Shown one piece after another: positions 108 through 7,514 of a DNA stretch of 64,000 nt; position 1 is the first letter of the stretch, and every line of letters starts with the position of its first letter. The translations under genes were made by a program, and so were the position numbers. The notes under the pieces were generated by a model, which saw nothing but the letters and a program-made list of their open reading frames with translations, was not told where the DNA came from and searched no databases. This DNA is from Escherichia coli. GTDB lineage: Bacteria; Pseudomonadota; Gammaproteobacteria; Enterobacterales; Enterobacteriaceae. The stretch is from the NCBI RefSeq assembly GCF_003790525.1, contig NZ_CP033635.1; one strand, given 5' to 3'.

Positions 108-830
108 TCACTTATTCTGCGTATGCAGCATATAGTTCACATCAACGCCGGGGCCGAGCTTAAAGGAATTAGTTATAGGGTTGTAATGCAGCCCGGTCAT
201 ATGCCGTTCTTTAAGACTGGTCTGATCCACCCAGCCCAGCAATTCTGCCGGTTTAATAAACTTCTTCACATCATGTGTACCTTTAGGCACCATGCGCAAA
301 ATATATTCAGCACCAACCACCGCCATCAGCCATGACTTGCCGTTGCGGTTGAGCGTCGAGAAAAAGACATCGCCGCCCGGTTTCACCAGTTGCGCACAGG
401 CTCTGACCACTGACTGAGGATCGGGGACGTGCTCCAGCATCTCCATGCAGGTCACCACATCATACTGCCCGGCATGTTTTGCCGCGTGCTCTTCCACGGT
501 TTCCTGCACGTAATCCACCTGAATGCCGCTTTCCAGTGCGTGCAGTTTTGCCACCTGCAATGGCTCAAAGCCCATATCCAGACCGGTCACCGTCGCACCT
601 TCGCGCGCCATACTCTCGGCCAGAATGCCGCCGCCACAACCGACATCGAGCACCTTTTTGCCAAATAAACCGCCAGCACGCTCGGCAATATAGCCCAGAC
701 GCAGCGGGTTAATACGGTGCAGCGGTTTGAACTCACCTTCCAGATCCCACCAGCGGGAGGCGACGGCTTCAAATTTAGCGATCTCTTCGTGGTCTACGTT
801 ATTGTTTTTAAGGAGATTTTCAGTGTTCAT
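108..830 (-). CDS. ubiG: Bifunctional 3-demethylubiquinone-9 3-O-methyltransferase UbiG (240 aa)
   Basis: Same length as E. coli UbiG and near-identical over residues ~11-240 as I recall it; SAM-binding motif [11 protein letters not shown]; divergent from gyrA as in K-12. Confidence 0.95.
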
Positions 831-907
831 TGTTACATAAGAGTCTATAAAGGTTGTCGGGCAGTATAGCAGGTGAAAAGTGCCAGTGTTATAAACTCAT
901 TCACATT

Positions 908-1606
908 TTACTGTGTAGATAACGAGAGAATTTTTCGTGCGCGCTCGGTAAATCCACTACTTACGTGATGAGTAATAAAATTACAAACACCTTCAACGTT
1001 ATTATTTTTTAGCATATCTAAAATAGTCGCATGGCCACGATTTGAATTGGTGATATATTCCGTAGTGAAATCCAGTCGATAACGGATAGCAAGTAAACGT
1101 GCGGATATCAATTGGTGTGCCTGAGAGATGTATTTATTATCAGCGTATTTAACAAACACATAATGAAAATCATGATCCAGTTTAAGATAAGCCTGAGTAT
1201 CGCGCTCGGCATTAATTTTTGCTGATTTTGATAGTATACTATTTAGTTCAATGATGACATTGTTTGCATTCTTTTCCATTGCTTCACTAATTGCACCCTG
1301 CTCCAGAATTACTCGCATTTTTATGAGGTCATTAATATCTTTATCTGTTACGGAAAAAACGAATGTTCCGCTGCGTGGAATGATATTGATCAGATTTTCA
1401 TTGTGACTAAGTAAAATAAAAGCTTCACGAATAGGTGTTTTACTTACCGCCAGAATATTCGAAAGTTCATTTTCACTTATCGGTTGCCCAAGACTGAGAT
1501 CGCCATGAATTATCATATCCCTGATTTTTTCTTTGATGACCTGTGTTACGGATTTTGGTATCTCAATTGATATGTGACTTAAGTCACGTTTCGCTTTATC
1601 TCTCAT
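908..1606 (-). CDS. GntR-family (FadR/FCD-type) transcriptional regulator, 232 aa
   Basis: N-terminal winged-HTH typical of GntR (ENELSNILAVSKTPIREAF) with a C-terminal helical FCD-like domain; strongly AT-rich codon usage; no equivalent between ubiG and gyrA in K-12 as I recall. Confidence 0.7.
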   Translation of the reverse strand: MRDKAKRDLSHISIEIPKSVTQVIKEKIRDMIIHGDLSLGQPISENELSNILAVSKTPIREAFILLSHNENLINIIPRSGTFVFSVTDKDINDLIKMRVILEQGAISEAMEKNANNVIIELNSILSKSAKINAERDTQAYLKLDHDFHYVFVKYADNKYISQAHQLISARLLAIRYRLDFTTEYITNSNRGHATILDMLKNNNVEGVCNFITHHVSSGFTERARKILSLSTQ

Positions 1607-1670
1607 TCCTTTGCCCCTTATTAAGCTGCTGGTCCATTATATGTAATCATTTTATCAATGAAGGTATCTA

Positions 1671-1753
1671 ATATATCAGATATGACAAAAATGATATATC
1701 TTATTGTTGTAGCTTAGTGTTTCAATCAATGATCAAGCTGATATATCAGATAT
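1671..1753. promoter_or_regulatory. Divergent promoter region with two exact 13-bp direct repeats ATATATCAGATAT (1671-1683 and 1741-1753); candidate operator for the adjacent GntR regulator
   Basis: Exact 13-mer repeated 70 bp apart, with extended ~20-bp similarity (ctaatatatcagatatgaca / ctgatatatcagatataaca), lying between the divergently oriented regulator and transporter genes. Confidence 0.4.
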
Positions 1754-1843
1754 AACACATCACCTTTTGAACTGGATTATTTTTTACGTAATATCCACTT
1801 CGGGCAGTACTCTTATTCATTGAACCACAAAAGGTGAAACAAA

Positions 1844-3172
1844 ATGAGCAGTCCTCAGAAAGATTTGTATGAAGCCATTTCTATTGTGAAAAGGAAGATT
1901 ATTCCGTTAGCATTTATTCTGTATTTTTTTAACTATATGGATCGTGTTAACATCGGATTTGCCGCTTTACGCATGAATGAATCCCTTGGTATTACACCAG
2001 AGGATTTTGCTAATATATCTTCAATATTTTTTGTGTCCTATTTGATTTTTCAAATTCCGAGCAGTATTGGATTGCAAAAGTTAGGTGCAAGAAAATGGAT
2101 TAGCGCCATTATTGTTGGTTGGGGAACAGTAACAACGTTAATTTTCTTTGCCAAAGACACCCAGCATATATTGCTCGCTCGGGTCTTTTTGGGAATATTT
2201 GAAGCGGGGTTTTTCCCTGGCATGGTTTACTACCTGGCATGTTGGTTCCCGGCGCGTGAACGTGGAAAAGTGAATAGCTTTTTTATGTTATCAATCGCAG
2301 TTGCATCTGTGCTGGCGGCACCAATGTCTGGTTGGATTATTGAACATATGAATACCGGTAACTATGAAGGATGGCGCTGGCTTTTTGCTATTGAAGGCAT
2401 TCCTACGGTGTTATTGGGGGCGCTGACCTTTTATTTACTGCCAGATCGTCCGGAAAAAGCCCGCTGGCTTACACCATCGCAAGTCACCGCATTGGTCGAT
2501 AAACTTAATTCTGATAACGAAAAAGCCGCAGCATTAAATAAAAATACAAATGCATCTTTTCTGTCAATCATTAAAAATCCAGTATTACTACAACTCTCAT
2601 TTGCTTATATGTTTATTCAGGCAGCGGCGTTGGCGGCAAATTACTGGTTACCGGGGTTGGTTAAAGGATTTTCATCGGATTTCACAGATACCGATGTCGG
2701 TTTGATTATGAGTATTCCGTTTATTTTCGCGATGTTCAGTATGCCATTATGGGGATGGCATTCCGATAAAAAGAATGAAAGGAAATGGCATGCCGCACTA
2801 CCGATGTTGGTTGCAGGTTGCGGTTTTTTAATGATCGCACTTGTACCTTCGATGACGCTGCGCATGATGGGATTAACATTATACGGTGTAGGCATTCTCA
2901 GTTATTACGGTCCGTACTGGGCTTTACCCTCAGCTTTACTTTCACCATCAGGCCTGGCAATCAGTATTGCGTTTATTAACTCTTGTTCAAGTTTGGGTGG
3001 TTTTCTGATCAATAAATCACTTGGCTATGTTTCTACACATTATGGAGCCACGGGGATATTTATTGTTGAGGCGATTCTTTGCTTTATCGCCGTAGCTATT
3101 TTGTTATCAATGAAAATTGATAATAAAAAAGATAACGCCCAGAAAGACAATGTTATTTCACATGCTAAATAA
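1844..3172 (+). CDS. MFS transporter, anion:cation symporter (ACS) family, sugar-acid permease-like (DgoT/ExuT/GudP-like), 442 aa
   Basis: About 12 predicted hydrophobic segments; N-terminal ACS-type motif NYMDRVNIGFA; AT-rich codon usage. Confidence 0.75.
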   Translation: MSSPQKDLYEAISIVKRKIIPLAFILYFFNYMDRVNIGFAALRMNESLGITPEDFANISSIFFVSYLIFQIPSSIGLQKLGARKWISAIIVGWGTVTTLIFFAKDTQHILLARVFLGIFEAGFFPGMVYYLACWFPARERGKVNSFFMLSIAVASVLAAPMSGWIIEHMNTGNYEGWRWLFAIEGIPTVLLGALTFYLLPDRPEKARWLTPSQVTALVDKLNSDNEKAAALNKNTNASFLSIIKNPVLLQLSFAYMFIQAAALAANYWLPGLVKGFSSDFTDTDVGLIMSIPFIFAMFSMPLWGWHSDKKNERKWHAALPMLVAGCGFLMIALVPSMTLRMMGLTLYGVGILSYYGPYWALPSALLSPSGLAISIAFINSCSSLGGFLINKSLGYVSTHYGATGIFIVEAILCFIAVAILLSMKIDNKKDNAQKDNVISHAK

Positions 3173-3184
3173 ATGAGGTTATTT

Positions 3185-4387
3185 ATGAAGATTACATCTG
3201 TAGAAATTTTTGACTGCGAACTCAAAAAAAGAGATCAAACTATGGCCTCTTATAATCCAGTACTTATTCGGGTTAATACCGATGCTGGAATAAGTGGTGT
3301 TGGCGAAGTAGGATTAGCCTATGGTGCAGGTGCAAAATCTGGTGTTGGTATTATCAGAGATTTAGCCCCTCTCATCATTGGTGAAGATCCGTTGAACATT
3401 GAGAAGATTTGGGAATTCCTCTTCAGGAAAACATTTTGGGGAATGGGCGGTGGTAATGTTTTTTACGCAGGTATGAGCGCTATTGATATTGCCTTATGGG
3501 ATATTAAAGGTAAATATTTAAACGTGCCGGTTTATCAACTACTGGGGGGAAAGACTAACGATAAATTGAGAACTTACGCCAGTCAGTTACAATTTGGTTG
3601 GGGCGAAAAAAGGCAAATATTAGTAACGCCTGAAGAGTATGCAGAGGCAGCGCGTGCCGCTATTGCAGAAGGTTATAATGCGATAAAAGTTGATCCGCTT
3701 GAAATCGATCTGCATGGCGGCGATTGTGTCTTTCAGAACAAAAATAGAAATTACTCTGGCTTATTACTGGCCGAACAATTAAAAATGGGCGAGGCAAGAA
3801 TTGCCGCTATGCGTGAAGCAATGGGCGACGATGCTGATATTATTGTAGAGATTCATTCTCTTCTAGGAACAAATTCAGCGATCCAGTTTGCCAAAGCAAT
3901 AGAGAAATATCGTATTTTTCTCTATGAGGAGCCAATTCATCCATTAAATTCGGATAATATGCAGAAAGTTGCCCGTTCAACATCGATTCCGATAGCAACA
4001 GGTGAGCGTTCTTATACTCGCTGGGGATATCGTGATTTACTGGAAAAACAATCAATTGCGGTAGCTCAACCTGATTTGTGTCTTTGTGGTGGCATTACAG
4101 AGGGAAAGAAAATTTGTGATTATGCCAATATATATGACACAACCGTTCAGGTACATGTTTGTGGCGGGCCTGTTTCAACAGTAGCGGCGCTGCATATGGA
4201 AACTGCAATACCTAACTTTATTATTCATGAACATCATACCAATGCGATGAAAGCATGTATTCGGGAACTTTGTACTTACGATTATCAACCCGAGAATGGC
4301 TATTATGTCGCGCCAGAGTTGCCTGGGCTTGGTCAGGAATTAAACGATGAAATCGTACAACAATATCTTGCCTATGTGATCAAATAA
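3185..4387 (+). CDS. Enolase-superfamily (mandelate racemase/muconate lactonizing enzyme-like) acid-sugar dehydratase, ~400 aa
   Basis: N-terminal capping-domain and barrel motifs typical of the MR/MLE superfamily (AIDIALWDIKGK, PVYQLLGG, later EEP and HxxE-type regions); the ATG at 3185 follows a GAGG Shine-Dalgarno; an alternative ATG at 3173 abuts the transporter stop. Confidence 0.7.
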   Translation: MKITSVEIFDCELKKRDQTMASYNPVLIRVNTDAGISGVGEVGLAYGAGAKSGVGIIRDLAPLIIGEDPLNIEKIWEFLFRKTFWGMGGGNVFYAGMSAIDIALWDIKGKYLNVPVYQLLGGKTNDKLRTYASQLQFGWGEKRQILVTPEEYAEAARAAIAEGYNAIKVDPLEIDLHGGDCVFQNKNRNYSGLLLAEQLKMGEARIAAMREAMGDDADIIVEIHSLLGTNSAIQFAKAIEKYRIFLYEEPIHPLNSDNMQKVARSTSIPIATGERSYTRWGYRDLLEKQSIAVAQPDLCLCGGITEGKKICDYANIYDTTVQVHVCGGPVSTVAALHMETAIPNFIIHEHHTNAMKACIRELCTYDYQPENGYYVAPELPGLGQELNDEIVQQYLAYVIK

Positions 4388-4414
4388 CGGCGATTTATAT
4401 ACTCTAAATAATTC

Positions 4415-4675
4415 GAGTTGCAGGAAGGCGACAAGCGAGTGACAAATTCGTCAGGAACGAATTTGCCCAGCCGCAGGCTGGCCTTCGGTGAGAGACATGG
4501 ATGTCTCTCATTAATCCCCAGGAGCTTACATAAGTAAGTGACTGGGGTGAGCGACAAATCCGCATGGAGCGGATTTGAACGCTGCTTGCAGCGGCCCCGT
4601 AAGGGGTGAGGTCCATGGATGGGCCGAATAACCCGCAGACGCAGCACATGCAACTTGAAGTATGACGAGTATAGC
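4415..4675. repeat. ERIC (enterobacterial repetitive intergenic consensus / IRU) element, long form with internal insertions
   Basis: Contains the ERIC core aatccccaggagcttacataagtaagtgactggggtgagcg and characteristic ends (gagttgcaggaaggcg ... acatgcaacttgaagtatgacgagtata); the ORFs called here (4372-4653, 4404-4649, 4619-4855) are taken as spurious. Confidence 0.8.
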
Positions 4676-4833
4676 CATTATTTCTGGTGTTTATTGAGGC
4701 ACAGGAAGCGTGTTGCGGTCTTTGTTCCTTTGTCGTTCACCGCCAGCGCGATGTGTGCTGGCGGTGGGGTAAAACGCAGTAGATCTACAGCGCCCGGAAG
4801 CCTGCATTACGTTTACCCGTCCGCAAGCGATTG

Positions 4834-4842
4834 TGTTATAAT
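4834..4842 (+). promoter_or_regulatory. Candidate gyrA promoter extended -10 element (TGtTATAAT)
   Basis: TGn + TATAAT hexamer about 45 bp upstream of the gyrA ATG. Confidence 0.5.
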
Positions 4843-4886
4843 CTCCGACCTTTGAATCCGGGATACAGTAGAGGGATAGCGGTTAG

Positions 4887-7514
4887 ATGAGCGACCTTGC
4901 GAGAGAAATTACACCGGTCAACATTGAGGAAGAGCTGAAGAGCTCCTATCTGGATTATGCGATGTCGGTCATTGTTGGCCGTGCGCTGCCGGATGTCCGA
5001 GATGGCCTGAAGCCGGTACACCGTCGCGTACTTTACGCCATGAACGTACTAGGCAATGACTGGAACAAAGCCTATAAAAAATCTGCCCGTGTCGTTGGTG
5101 ACGTAATCGGTAAATACCATCCCCATGGTGACTTGGCGGTTTATAACACGATCGTCCGTATGGCGCAGCCATTCTCGCTGCGTTACATGCTGGTAGACGG
5201 TCAGGGTAACTTCGGTTCCATCGACGGCGACTCTGCGGCGGCAATGCGTTATACGGAAATCCGTCTGGCGAAAATTGCCCATGAACTGATGGCCGATCTC
5301 GAAAAAGAGACGGTCGATTTCGTTGATAACTATGACGGCACGGAAAAAATTCCGGACGTCATGCCAACCAAAATTCCTAACCTGCTGGTGAACGGTTCTT
5401 CCGGTATCGCCGTAGGTATGGCAACCAACATCCCGCCGCACAACCTGACGGAAGTCATCAACGGTTGTCTGGCGTATATCGATGATGAAGACATCAGCAT
5501 TGAAGGGCTGATGGAACACATCCCGGGGCCGGACTTCCCGACGGCGGCAATCATTAACGGTCGTCGCGGTATTGAAGAAGCTTACCGTACCGGTCGTGGC
5601 AAGGTGTATATCCGCGCCCGTGCGGAAGTGGAAGTTGACGCCAAAACCGGGCGTGAAACCATTATCGTCCACGAAATTCCGTATCAGGTGAACAAAGCTC
5701 GCCTGATCGAAAAAATTGCGGAACTGGTAAAAGAAAAACGCGTGGAAGGTATCAGCGCGCTGCGTGACGAGTCTGACAAAGACGGTATGCGCATCGTGAT
5801 TGAAGTGAAACGCGATGCGGTCGGTGAAGTGGTGCTCAACAACCTCTATTCCCAGACCCAGTTGCAGGTTTCTTTCGGTATTAACATGGTGGCATTGCAC
5901 CATGGTCAGCCGAAGATCATGAACCTGAAAGACATCATCGCGGCGTTTGTTCGTCACCGCCGTGAAGTGGTGACCCGTCGTACTATTTTCGAACTGCGTA
6001 AAGCGCGCGATCGTGCTCATATCCTTGAAGCATTAGCCGTCGCGCTGGCAAACATTGACCCGATCATCGAACTGATCCGTCATGCGCCGACGCCTGCAGA
6101 AGCGAAAACGGCGCTGGTTGCTAATCCGTGGCAGCTGGGCAACGTTGCCGCGATGCTGGAACGAGCCGGCGACGATGCTGCGCGTCCGGAATGGCTGGAG
6201 CCAGAGTTCGGCGTGCGTGACGGTCTGTACTACCTGACCGAACAGCAAGCTCAGGCGATTCTGGATCTGCGTTTGCAGAAACTGACCGGCCTTGAGCACG
6301 AAAAACTGCTCGACGAATACAAAGAGCTGCTGGATCAGATCGCGGAACTGTTGCGTATTCTTGGTAGCGCCGATCGTCTGATGGAAGTGATCCGCGAAGA
6401 GCTGGAGCTGGTTCGTGAACAGTTCGGTGACAAACGTCGTACTGAAATCACCGCCAACAGCGCAGACATCAACCTGGAAGATCTGATCACCCAGGAAGAT
6501 GTGGTCGTGACGCTCTCTCACCAGGGCTACGTTAAATATCAGCCGCTTTCTGAATACGAAGCGCAGCGTCGTGGCGGGAAAGGTAAATCTGCCGCACGTA
6601 TTAAAGAAGAAGACTTTATCGACCGACTGCTGGTGGCGAATACCCACGACCATATTCTGTGCTTCTCCAGCCGTGGTCGCGTCTATTCGATGAAGGTTTA
6701 CCAGTTGCCAGAAGCTACTCGTGGCGCGCGCGGTCGTCCGATCGTCAACCTGCTGCCGCTGGAGCAGGACGAACGTATCACCGCGATCCTGCCGGTGACC
6801 GAGTTTGAAGAAGGCGTGAAAGTCTTCATGGCCACCGCTAACGGGACCGTGAAGAAAACCGTCCTCACCGAATTCAACCGTCTGCGTACCGCCGGTAAAG
6901 TGGCGATCAAACTGGTTGATGGCGATGAGCTGATCGGCGTTGACCTGACCAGCGGCGAAGATGAAGTAATGCTGTTCTCCGCCGAAGGTAAAGTGGTGCG
7001 CTTTAAAGAGTCTTCTGTCCGTGCGATGGGCTGCAACACCACCGGTGTTCGCGGTATTCGTTTAGGCGAAGGCGATAAAGTCGTCTCTCTGATCGTACCT
7101 CGTGGTGATGGCGCAATCCTCACCGCAACGCAGAACGGTTATGGTAAACGTACCGCAGTGGCGGAATACCCAACCAAGTCGCGTGCGACGAAAGGGGTTA
7201 TCTCCATCAAGGTTACCGAACGTAACGGTTTAGTGGTTGGCGCGGTGCAGGTAGATGACTGCGACCAGATCATGATGATCACCGATGCCGGTACGCTGGT
7301 ACGTACTCGCGTTTCAGAAATCAGCATCGTGGGCCGTAACACCCAGGGCGTGATCCTCATCCGTACTGCGGAAGATGAAAACGTAGTGGGTCTGCAACGT
7401 GTTGCTGAACCGGTTGACGAGGAAGATCTGGATACCATCGACGGCAGTGCCGCGGAAGGGGACGATGAAATCGCTCCGGAAGTGGACGTTGACGACGAGC
7501 CAGAAGAAGAATAA
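4887..7514 (+). CDS. gyrA: DNA gyrase subunit A (875 aa) carrying QRDR substitutions S83L (TTG, 5133-5135) and D87N (AAC, 5145-5147)
   Basis: Full-length match to E. coli GyrA; QRDR reads [15 protein letters not shown] where wild type is HPHGDSAVYDTIVRM; catalytic Tyr122 context AMRYTE is intact. Confidence 0.97.

Follow-up and report, generated by a model that had tools for sequence, protein, structure and literature searches.

A pair of candidate operators for a GntR/FCD regulator upstream of an acid-sugar transporter-dehydratase operon in Escherichia coli

Most characterized FCD regulators of acid-sugar catabolism are repressors (DgoR, UxuR, ExuR, RspR, and NanR), and FCD-type activators or dual regulators exist as well (GlcC, LgoR/YjjM, CitO, and LldR). 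The D-galactonate operon of E. coli brings together the FCD repressor DgoR, the MFS transporter DgoT, and the enolase-superfamily dehydratase DgoD. E. coli LldR, an FCD protein that is both repressor and activator, has two operators, the second downstream of the transcription start, with a loop that encloses the promoter; the Enterococcus FCD activator CitO has two sites in a divergent region. For the FadR subfamily, the operator consensus is NyGTM-N0-1-KACNy, double sites occur in divergons of which the regulator gene is part, and additional half-site boxes lie 7 to 12 nt from the dyad center; exceptions to the consensus include NanR and BioR (Suvorova, Korostelev and Gelfand 2015, PMC4494728). 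The E. coli NanR operator consists of direct repeats, (GGTATA)3, 8 to 9 bp apart, to which binding is asymmetric and cooperative, and cooperativity between NanR dimers operates through a 32-residue N-terminal extension (Horne et al. 2021, PMC8012715).

We analyzed the 237-bp intergenic region between divergent regulator and MFS transporter genes of E. coli, in a window of 64 kb (the whole stretch of DNA that was studied), together with related loci. The locus is like the DgoR system in combining an FCD regulator with a D-galactonate-related MFS transporter and an enolase-superfamily acid-sugar dehydratase; it is unlike that system in that the island holds no kinase or aldolase gene and the putative operator is unrelated to the GT..AC type. 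With its two separated putative operators it resembles LldR and CitO, which act at least partly from upstream of the promoter, and it differs from LldR in that both sites lie upstream of the predicted MFS promoter. As in FadR-subfamily divergons, a regulator composed of a GntR winged helix and an FCD domain is encoded divergently from a catabolic operon, with two intergenic sites, and, as in many of the described groups, a palindromic core is accompanied by a half-site-like box ∼8 to 9 nt from the dyad center (PMC4494728). Unlike the operators of that subfamily, the core here, CTGATATATCAG, is without GT..AC, and its geometry is conserved toward the structural-gene promoter only. Neither the locus nor the motif appears in the accessible portion of the supplementary text of PMC4494728, and a literature search found no publication on the function or regulation of the locus, on the regulator, or on the motif.

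The three-gene island

The island is flanked by ubiG (108-830, minus strand) and gyrA (4887-7514) in the ORF list of the E. coli window. Its GC content is 33 to 42% across ∼840-4400 versus 51 to 57% in the flanks (GC scan), and it contains three genes.

908-1606, minus strand: GntR/FCD (FadR-subfamily) regulator, 232 aa (ORF; ortholog of STM2275)
1844-3172, plus strand: MFS transporter, 442 aa, first gene of the operon (ORF, RefSeq "MFS transporter"; ortholog of STM2274)
3185-4387, plus strand: enolase-superfamily (MR/MLE) acid-sugar dehydratase, 400 aa (RefSeq coordinates; ortholog of STM2273)

An earlier note on this DNA had assumed divergent regulator and transporter genes, and this was confirmed: the GntR/FCD regulator is encoded on the minus strand, the MFS transporter on the plus strand. 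Published names exist for STM2274 (MFS transporter) and STM2275 (putative regulator), from which the three genes can be equated with STM2273-2275. Among complete E. coli genomes, 140 of 5,426 (2.6%) carry the island, single copy and chromosomal in all of them; in Salmonella, where it is common, it occupies the same ubiG-gyrA site.

The regulator matches Pfam GntR over residues 22 to 83 (E value of 1.5e-13) and FCD over residues 93 to 216 (E value of 1.5e-20). Its NCBIfam matches are all sub-threshold (phnR_burk, NanR, GlcC, and CsiR), and the closest solved structures are the FCD-type GntR proteins 3SXY and 3FMS. RefSeq/PGAP calls the gene frameshifted in all six E. coli records examined and extends it to 1650 (908-1650). 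The 699-bp ORF is nevertheless intact in six of six E. coli alleles, with 12 to 14 nucleotide differences that lead to just 1 to 4 amino acid changes, and in alignment its start codon and Shine-Dalgarno sequence coincide with the Salmonella ones and with those of a related enterobacterial locus (P0005, described below); a 2-nt indel lies further upstream. Given an intact ORF with mostly synonymous differences and a preserved start and Shine-Dalgarno sequence, we read the frameshift flag as probably an annotation artifact, due to a reference protein that is probably over-extended at its N terminus. Judged by its sequence, the regulator is a genuine GntR+FCD protein, and it is under purifying selection.

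The transporter belongs to the TIGR00893 D-galactonate transporter subfamily with an E value of 4e-80, under the curated cutoff. The dehydratase is near-identical to PDB entries 4E6M and 2GL5 (E value of 1e-259), both titled only "putative dehydratase protein." Its NCBIfam matches all fall under the curated cutoffs, and the best of them, galactonate dehydratase (249 versus 311 bits), sets it apart from DgoD.

Signs of island decay are present in some strains (related E. coli and Salmonella loci H1, L097, L098, and P0006/L008). IS5 sits inside the dehydratase gene of strain TH9F11, strains MS 21-1 and AF3 have a frameshift in the MFS gene, and one Salmonella regulator allele has an internal deletion that takes out part of the DNA-binding domain. 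At the island edge, the segment from the dehydratase stop to gyrA (∼4398-4673) has several matches (median of 6) in essentially every E. coli genome and looks like REP/BIME-type repeats. Rfam gave no match in 1600-1850 at E values up to 1 and two sub-threshold matches elsewhere in 800-4900; a weak sub-threshold match to AaHKsRNA22 lies at 4546-4666.

The repeat pair, its footprint, and its symmetry

The earlier note had proposed that two identical 13-mers between the regulator and transporter genes form the operator of the adjacent GntR/FCD regulator. By direct reading and pattern search, ATATATCAGATAT is indeed found at 1671-1683 and 1741-1753 on the plus strand with 0 mismatches, and there is no further exact copy in the 64 kb. 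Allowing up to 2 mismatches gave 4 matches in the same 64 kb versus 0.93 expected, and all 4 overlap the two sites. A repeat search lengthened the pair to 20 nt (1668-1687 and 1738-1757, 90% identical, 70 bp start to start), in agreement with the ∼20-bp near-identical blocks 70 bp apart that had been described. The 12-mer CTGATATATCAG, with at most 1 mismatch allowed, is confined to 1668-1679 and 1738-1749 (0.07 expected), and two such matches were reached in none of 100 shuffles. The elements are as follows.

1668-1683, plus strand: site 1, distal to the MFS promoter, CTAATATATCAGATAT; conserved block 1667-1687; contains the 13-mer at 1671-1683
1738-1753, plus strand: site 2, proximal to the MFS promoter, CTGATATATCAGATAT; conserved block to 1757; contains the 13-mer at 1741-1753
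1693-1700, plus strand: third partial copy, GATATATC, overlapping the −10 element of one candidate regulator promoter

Intergenic regions were aligned from six E. coli alleles, Salmonella, and the P0005 locus. The last belongs to a Kosakonia/Phytobacter-like enterobacterium (its flanking proteins cluster with those of Kosakonia and Phytobacter) and encodes a regulator 72% identical to that of E. coli in another gene context. Identities over the three lineages were distributed along the region as follows.

Site 1 (1667-1683): 94 to 100% (Salmonella, 100%; P0005 locus, 94%)
Site 2 (1738-1753): 81 to 100% (Salmonella, 100%; P0005 locus, 81%)
54-bp spacer between the sites: 26 to 59%
Regulator-side flank: 33 to 56%

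In E. coli, Salmonella, and the P0005 locus alike, the two sites start exactly 70 bp apart. Eleven intergenic positions vary among the six E. coli alleles; none falls inside either site, and two of them, 1666 and 1736, fall immediately outside. Absence of the motif from orthologous loci had been named as a finding that would count against the operator proposal, and the motif is kept there at identical spacing. The third copy fared otherwise: GATATATC is present at 1693-1700 as claimed, but positions 1693 and 1696 vary among E. coli alleles and Salmonella has TTACATAC there. Because it is variable in E. coli and not kept in Salmonella, we do not count it as a site, and it is probably not functional.

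Other short repeats surround the pair. ATCAATGA is found at 1654-1661 and 1725-1732, 13 to 14 nt upstream of each site, and these copies are not kept in Salmonella. TCATTGA, the complement of ATCAATGA, occurs at 1817-1823 within the strongly conserved leader block CTTATTCATTGAA, immediately ahead of the MFS ribosome-binding site; conservation of the leader block (1795-1843) is 62 to 80%.

In site 2, the 12-bp palindrome CTGATATATCAG is perfect and is followed by an ATAT box. Site 1 reads CTAATATATCAG in E. coli and Salmonella and forms the perfect dyad CTAATATATTAG in the P0005 locus; in the aligned sequences, the step from CTAATATATCAG to CTAATATATTAG is a compensatory change. Over the lineages described below, the invariant part is T-n-ATATATCAG, and the core reads CTGATATATCAG in the E. 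coli group, L102, and L106. The ATAT box lies on the MFS side in most lineages and is absent in Budvicia and L108; core and box together give GATAT-N4-GATAT, for which site 2 of the P0005 locus has GACAT-N4-GACAT. The alternating AT run (ATATAT) is complementary to itself in several registers and thereby leaves the dyad axis ambiguous. Each of three axes suits some of the lineages, and a single firm axis was rejected; in L016 and L106, for instance, the best dyad is centered on the C of ATCAG. For the E. coli group, we favor CTGATA|TATCAG, followed by the extra ATAT box, as the best-fitting axis because of the G/C positions and the compensatory CTAATATATTAG in the P0005 locus. The palindrome ATATC-a-GATAT put forward in the earlier note is present in both E. 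coli copies, but it is not the best-supported axis, the conserved core being CTGATATATCAG plus ATAT.

The internal pseudo-palindrome had been called what is expected for dimeric GntR/FCD repressors. The FadR-subfamily consensus NyGTM-N0-1-KACNy (PMC4494728) does not fit the motif and cannot be aligned with it, as a GT..AC pair is missing from the conserved core (TnATATATCAG / CTGATATATCAG). The misfit lowers the typicality of the motif and does not exclude the regulator from the protein family, as PMC4494728 itself lists exceptions. An arginine-to-lysine replacement where the recognition helix begins (SKTPIREA) was considered as a cause of the odd motif and proved uninformative, since among the 150 nearest representatives lysine is found in 51 versus arginine in 55.

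One such exception, NanR, invites comparison at the level of the operator, as its GGTATA repeat is the sequence that the motif resembles most. E. coli site 2 can be written GATATA-TCA-GATATA-ACA, each hexamer one base from GGTATA, and GATATA-N3-GATATA, exact in this site, has its two units changed in parallel in the P0005 locus, where site 2 reads GACATA-N3-GACATA. NanR is also the second-best NCBIfam match of the regulator, far under the cutoff and over the FCD part only. Unlike the NanR operator, there are two repeats rather than three, and several lineages have a degenerate second hexamer or none (site 1 has a degenerate second GATATA unit, and Budvicia and L108 lack that unit). Unlike the NanR extension, ∼20 residues precede the winged helix in the E. 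coli regulator, a segment shorter and not conserved in Budvicia, L015, and L016. Direct and inverted readings of the sites are inseparable because the sequence is also a dyad, and we treat the resemblance to the NanR operator as a lead.

Recurrence in distant lineages and promoter geometry

Beyond the E. coli, Salmonella, and P0005 regulators, an exhaustive search found relatives only ∼43% identical. A profile scan of genome contigs with the regulator alignment matched 290 stretches, none encoding a relative; the >70%-identity group appears to be confined to E. coli, Salmonella, and the P0005 enterobacterium, or the scan missed Salmonella. A scan with the dehydratase alignment gave, among the matches listed, mostly distant paralogues, and related regulators among the matches listed were only those of Budvicia, Caballeronia, Cupriavidus, and Pseudomonas, the last three with other motifs.

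The module of MFS transporter, dehydratase, and FCD-GntR regulator recurs, with regulators 40 to 60% identical, in six further lineages: Budvicia diplopodorum (L014 and its close relative L104), a Rhodocyclaceae MAG (L106), L015, L016, L102, and L108. Regulator and operon are divergent in L102 and L106, codirectional in L014, L016, L104, and L108, and convergent in L015. In every such locus (5 to 11 kb), the best match to the E. coli 16-mer lies 90 to 300 bp upstream of the MFS start, so that the comparative search suggested in the earlier note does find the motif upstream of homologous transporter/dehydratase pairs in distant lineages. L016 has the exact 13-mer in a background of 57% GC, L102 has GCTGATATATCAGATAC, L106 has GTGATGTATCAGACAT and CTGATATTCCAGATGC 80 bp apart, and in Budvicia CTGATATATGAT and ATCATATATCAG are inverted relative to each other at a distance of 22 bp. 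The orientation of the motif relative to the MFS gene is alike in most lineages. As an unbiased check, all 10-mers with up to 1 mismatch were compared across the MFS-upstream regions of seven lineages and against 200 shuffles. The only 10-mers common to seven of seven lineages were CTGATATATC, TGATATATCA, TATCAGATAT, and GATATCTGAT; in the shuffled sequences, the maximum was usually 4 lineages, and 7 was reached in 0 of 200.

More distant regulators are accompanied by different two-copy palindromes, as expected if each operator coevolves with its own regulator. The regulator closest to the ortholog group from outside it (43% identical) is encoded on a metagenome contig (L011:13-6708), where a single MFS gene is clustered with three enolase-superfamily dehydratase paralogues in tandem and a tandem pair of FCD-GntR regulators; the motif is absent from this cluster. 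Pseudomonas fluorescens PS900 (L020) has the palindrome CTGTGAAATTTCACAG / TGTGAAATTTCACAG at 4239-4251 and 4352-4364, 113 bp apart, upstream of a 63%-identical dehydratase and beside a related FCD regulator; these copies also fit the LexA-box pattern CTGT-N8-ACAG. Beside related dehydratase operons, a Veillonellaceae MAG (L028:3029-3069) has the long perfect AT-rich palindrome GGACACTGTTGATTATATAT-A-ATATATAATCAACAGTGTCC, and Budvicia aquatica (L030:4408-4427) has the perfect AT-rich palindrome ATATATTATATATAATATAT. Both show a related ATATAT theme and probably serve other regulators as operators.

Promoter candidates were obtained by weight-matrix scan.

1767-1794, plus strand: predicted sigma-70 promoter of the MFS-dehydratase operon (−35 TTGAAC at 1767-1772, 16-nt spacer, −10 TAATAT at 1789-1794)
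1698-1725, minus strand: candidate regulator promoter between the sites (−35 TTGAAA, −10 TAAGAT; weak)
1636-1641, minus strand: second candidate regulator promoter (positionally conserved −10 TATAAT)

The site-linked MFS candidate ranks top in E. coli, the P0005 locus, L015, L102, and L106 and second in Salmonella. In all six, the −35 hexamer begins exactly 13 nt after the end of the 16-mer site. In the order E. coli, Salmonella, P0005, L015, L102, and L106, the −35 hexamers are TTGAAC, TTGAAT, TTGTCT, TTGACT, TTGACG, and TTGACG, and the −10 hexamers are TAATAT, TAACAT, TAACAT, TATACT, TAACGT, and TAACTT. The distance from the distal to the proximal site is 70 bp in the E. coli group and 79 to 80 bp in L102 and L106; 70 and 80 bp differ by about one helical turn, and neither is a whole number of 10.5-bp turns. 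L015 has a single site, at the upstream position, and L016 has a strong site 93 nt from a TTGACT hexamer, which resembles the distal sites of L102 and L106.

We infer an MFS transcription start near 1801. With this predicted start, site 2 would span about −63 to −48 (center near −57) and site 1 about −133 to −118. The sole start near the locus in a Salmonella primary-transcriptome paper is internal to STM2275, with 1 to 2 reads, and the locus is absent from the accessible portion of the supplementary data of a second transcription-start paper.

The regulator side behaves differently from the MFS side. Three promoter candidates exist there in E. coli, and none holds jointly in Salmonella, the P0005 locus, L102, and L106. 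The claim that the repeats are positioned to control both divergent promoters therefore finds no counterpart across lineages: only the MFS-side geometry is conserved, and the two-site layout is also present where the regulator is not divergent. Together, the conserved geometry and these nondivergent two-site loci argue for control of the transporter operon.

Inside regulator codons 7 to 12, at 1573-1588, there is a CRP-like palindrome, CGTGA-N6-TCACA in the minus-strand reading, which Salmonella retains and which in the P0005 locus has the perfect form TGTGA-N6-TCACA. The same segment also scored as a terminator-like hairpin with a T-rich tail on the plus strand. The CRP-like pattern has 2 matches versus 1.75 expected in the window, which is not significant, and coding constraint could explain its conservation.

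Identity of the sites and sign of control

The evidence on the identity of the sites comprises the exact and unique repeats, the footprint, the co-occurrence with the regulator family, the shuffles, the compensatory change, the fixed distance to the predicted promoter, the GntR+FCD make-up of the regulator, and the double sites and extra boxes described for its subfamily. On these grounds, we consider it highly probable that the two sites are cognate operators of the island's GntR/FCD regulator and control the MFS promoter. The fuller explanation, that they form an operator pair through which the island's own regulator governs the MFS-dehydratase operon, is likewise probable. The proposal of a candidate operator for the adjacent regulator is thereby strengthened, by conserved spacing and by recurrence with the regulator family. 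In the mechanism we propose, the 12-bp dyad CTGATA|TATCAG of each site would take one winged-helix dimer, and the half-site-like ATAT box on its promoter side would complete a composite site. Regulator dimers would fill both sites cooperatively, and an acid-sugar ligand on the FCD domain would alter DNA binding and switch the operon.

As to the sign of control, ligand-relieved repression is our tentative choice, held with slightly less than even confidence, because the family prior favors a ligand-relieved repressor. Both sites fall outside the predicted core promoter, an unusual arrangement for a simple repressor, and positions upstream of the −35 element are equally compatible with activation. 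An alternative that keeps the same sites and the same binder is therefore a serious possibility, if short of a likely one: the regulator may be a ligand-dependent activator or dual regulator. Bound ∼57 bp upstream of the start, it could quite conceivably contact RNA polymerase in a class I-like manner, with cooperativity contributed by the distal site. The two sites are entirely upstream of the −35 element, the 13-nt gap is strict in six lineages despite regulators only ∼40% identical, the orientation of the motif toward the MFS gene is constant in most lineages, and the one site of L015 occupies that upstream position. FCD activators and dual regulators are moreover known (GlcC, LgoR/YjjM, CitO, and LldR), although the characterized acid-sugar FCD regulators are mostly repressors. 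The promoter elements point in two directions, weak −10 hexamers (TAACGT, TAACTT, TAACAT, and TAATAT) standing beside good −35 hexamers so near to consensus that the promoter may need no activation, and the promoter assignment is itself a prediction. A more specific version, which we regard as rather unlikely, is that the locus represents an FCD-GntR subgroup not described before, marked by a non-GT/AC composite site (dyad plus oriented box) in a stereospecific position (13 nt upstream of the −35 element, with the distal site plus or minus one helical turn) and acting as a ligand-dependent activator or dual switch.

That another protein binds the repeats, for example H-NS silencing a low-GC acquired island, or some other global regulator, is improbable. 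The island is AT-rich (33 to 42% GC versus ∼51 to 57% in the flanks), as is the motif, with TpA steps, and the CRP-like palindrome at 1573-1588 is nearby. The motif nonetheless retains specific G/C positions and stays with the three-gene module in other orders and in genomes of high GC content (L016, with 57% GC; L102; and L106, from Rhodocyclaceae), and distant regulators have two-copy palindromes of their own, as operator-regulator coevolution would lead one to expect. Nor is it a LexA (SOS) box, which is a 16-bp palindrome, CTG-N10-CAG; the motif, CTG-N6-CAG over 12 bp, rules this out. Least probable is that the repeats are a functionless remnant of a ∼33-bp local duplication or a chance repeat in low-complexity, AT-rich DNA: such a background makes repeats likelier and the E. 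coli similarity reaches ATCAATGA as a duplication would leave it, but this extension is not kept in Salmonella, the sites are kept while their flanks diverge, they recur in seven lineages, 0 of 200 shuffles match, and the divergent flanks speak against contamination or recent transfer at the distant-lineage matches.

Read as the operator pair of its own regulator, the locus is an ordinary kind of genetic switch, a local GntR-family regulator-operator pair, which was not described before and has an atypical operator. Such pairs are commonplace, and the value of this one is practical. The motif is a clear exception to the GT..AC rule of FadR-subfamily operators, and the strictness of the promoter geometry among regulators that share just 40% identity can inform models of FCD regulator action. 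A defined operator with its cognate FCD regulator offers a direct assay for the effector, which could point to the substrate of the dehydratase pathway. The STM2273-type dehydratase family has had crystal structures for many years and no assigned substrate, and if the subgroup reading is true, the operator could provide a handle on it.
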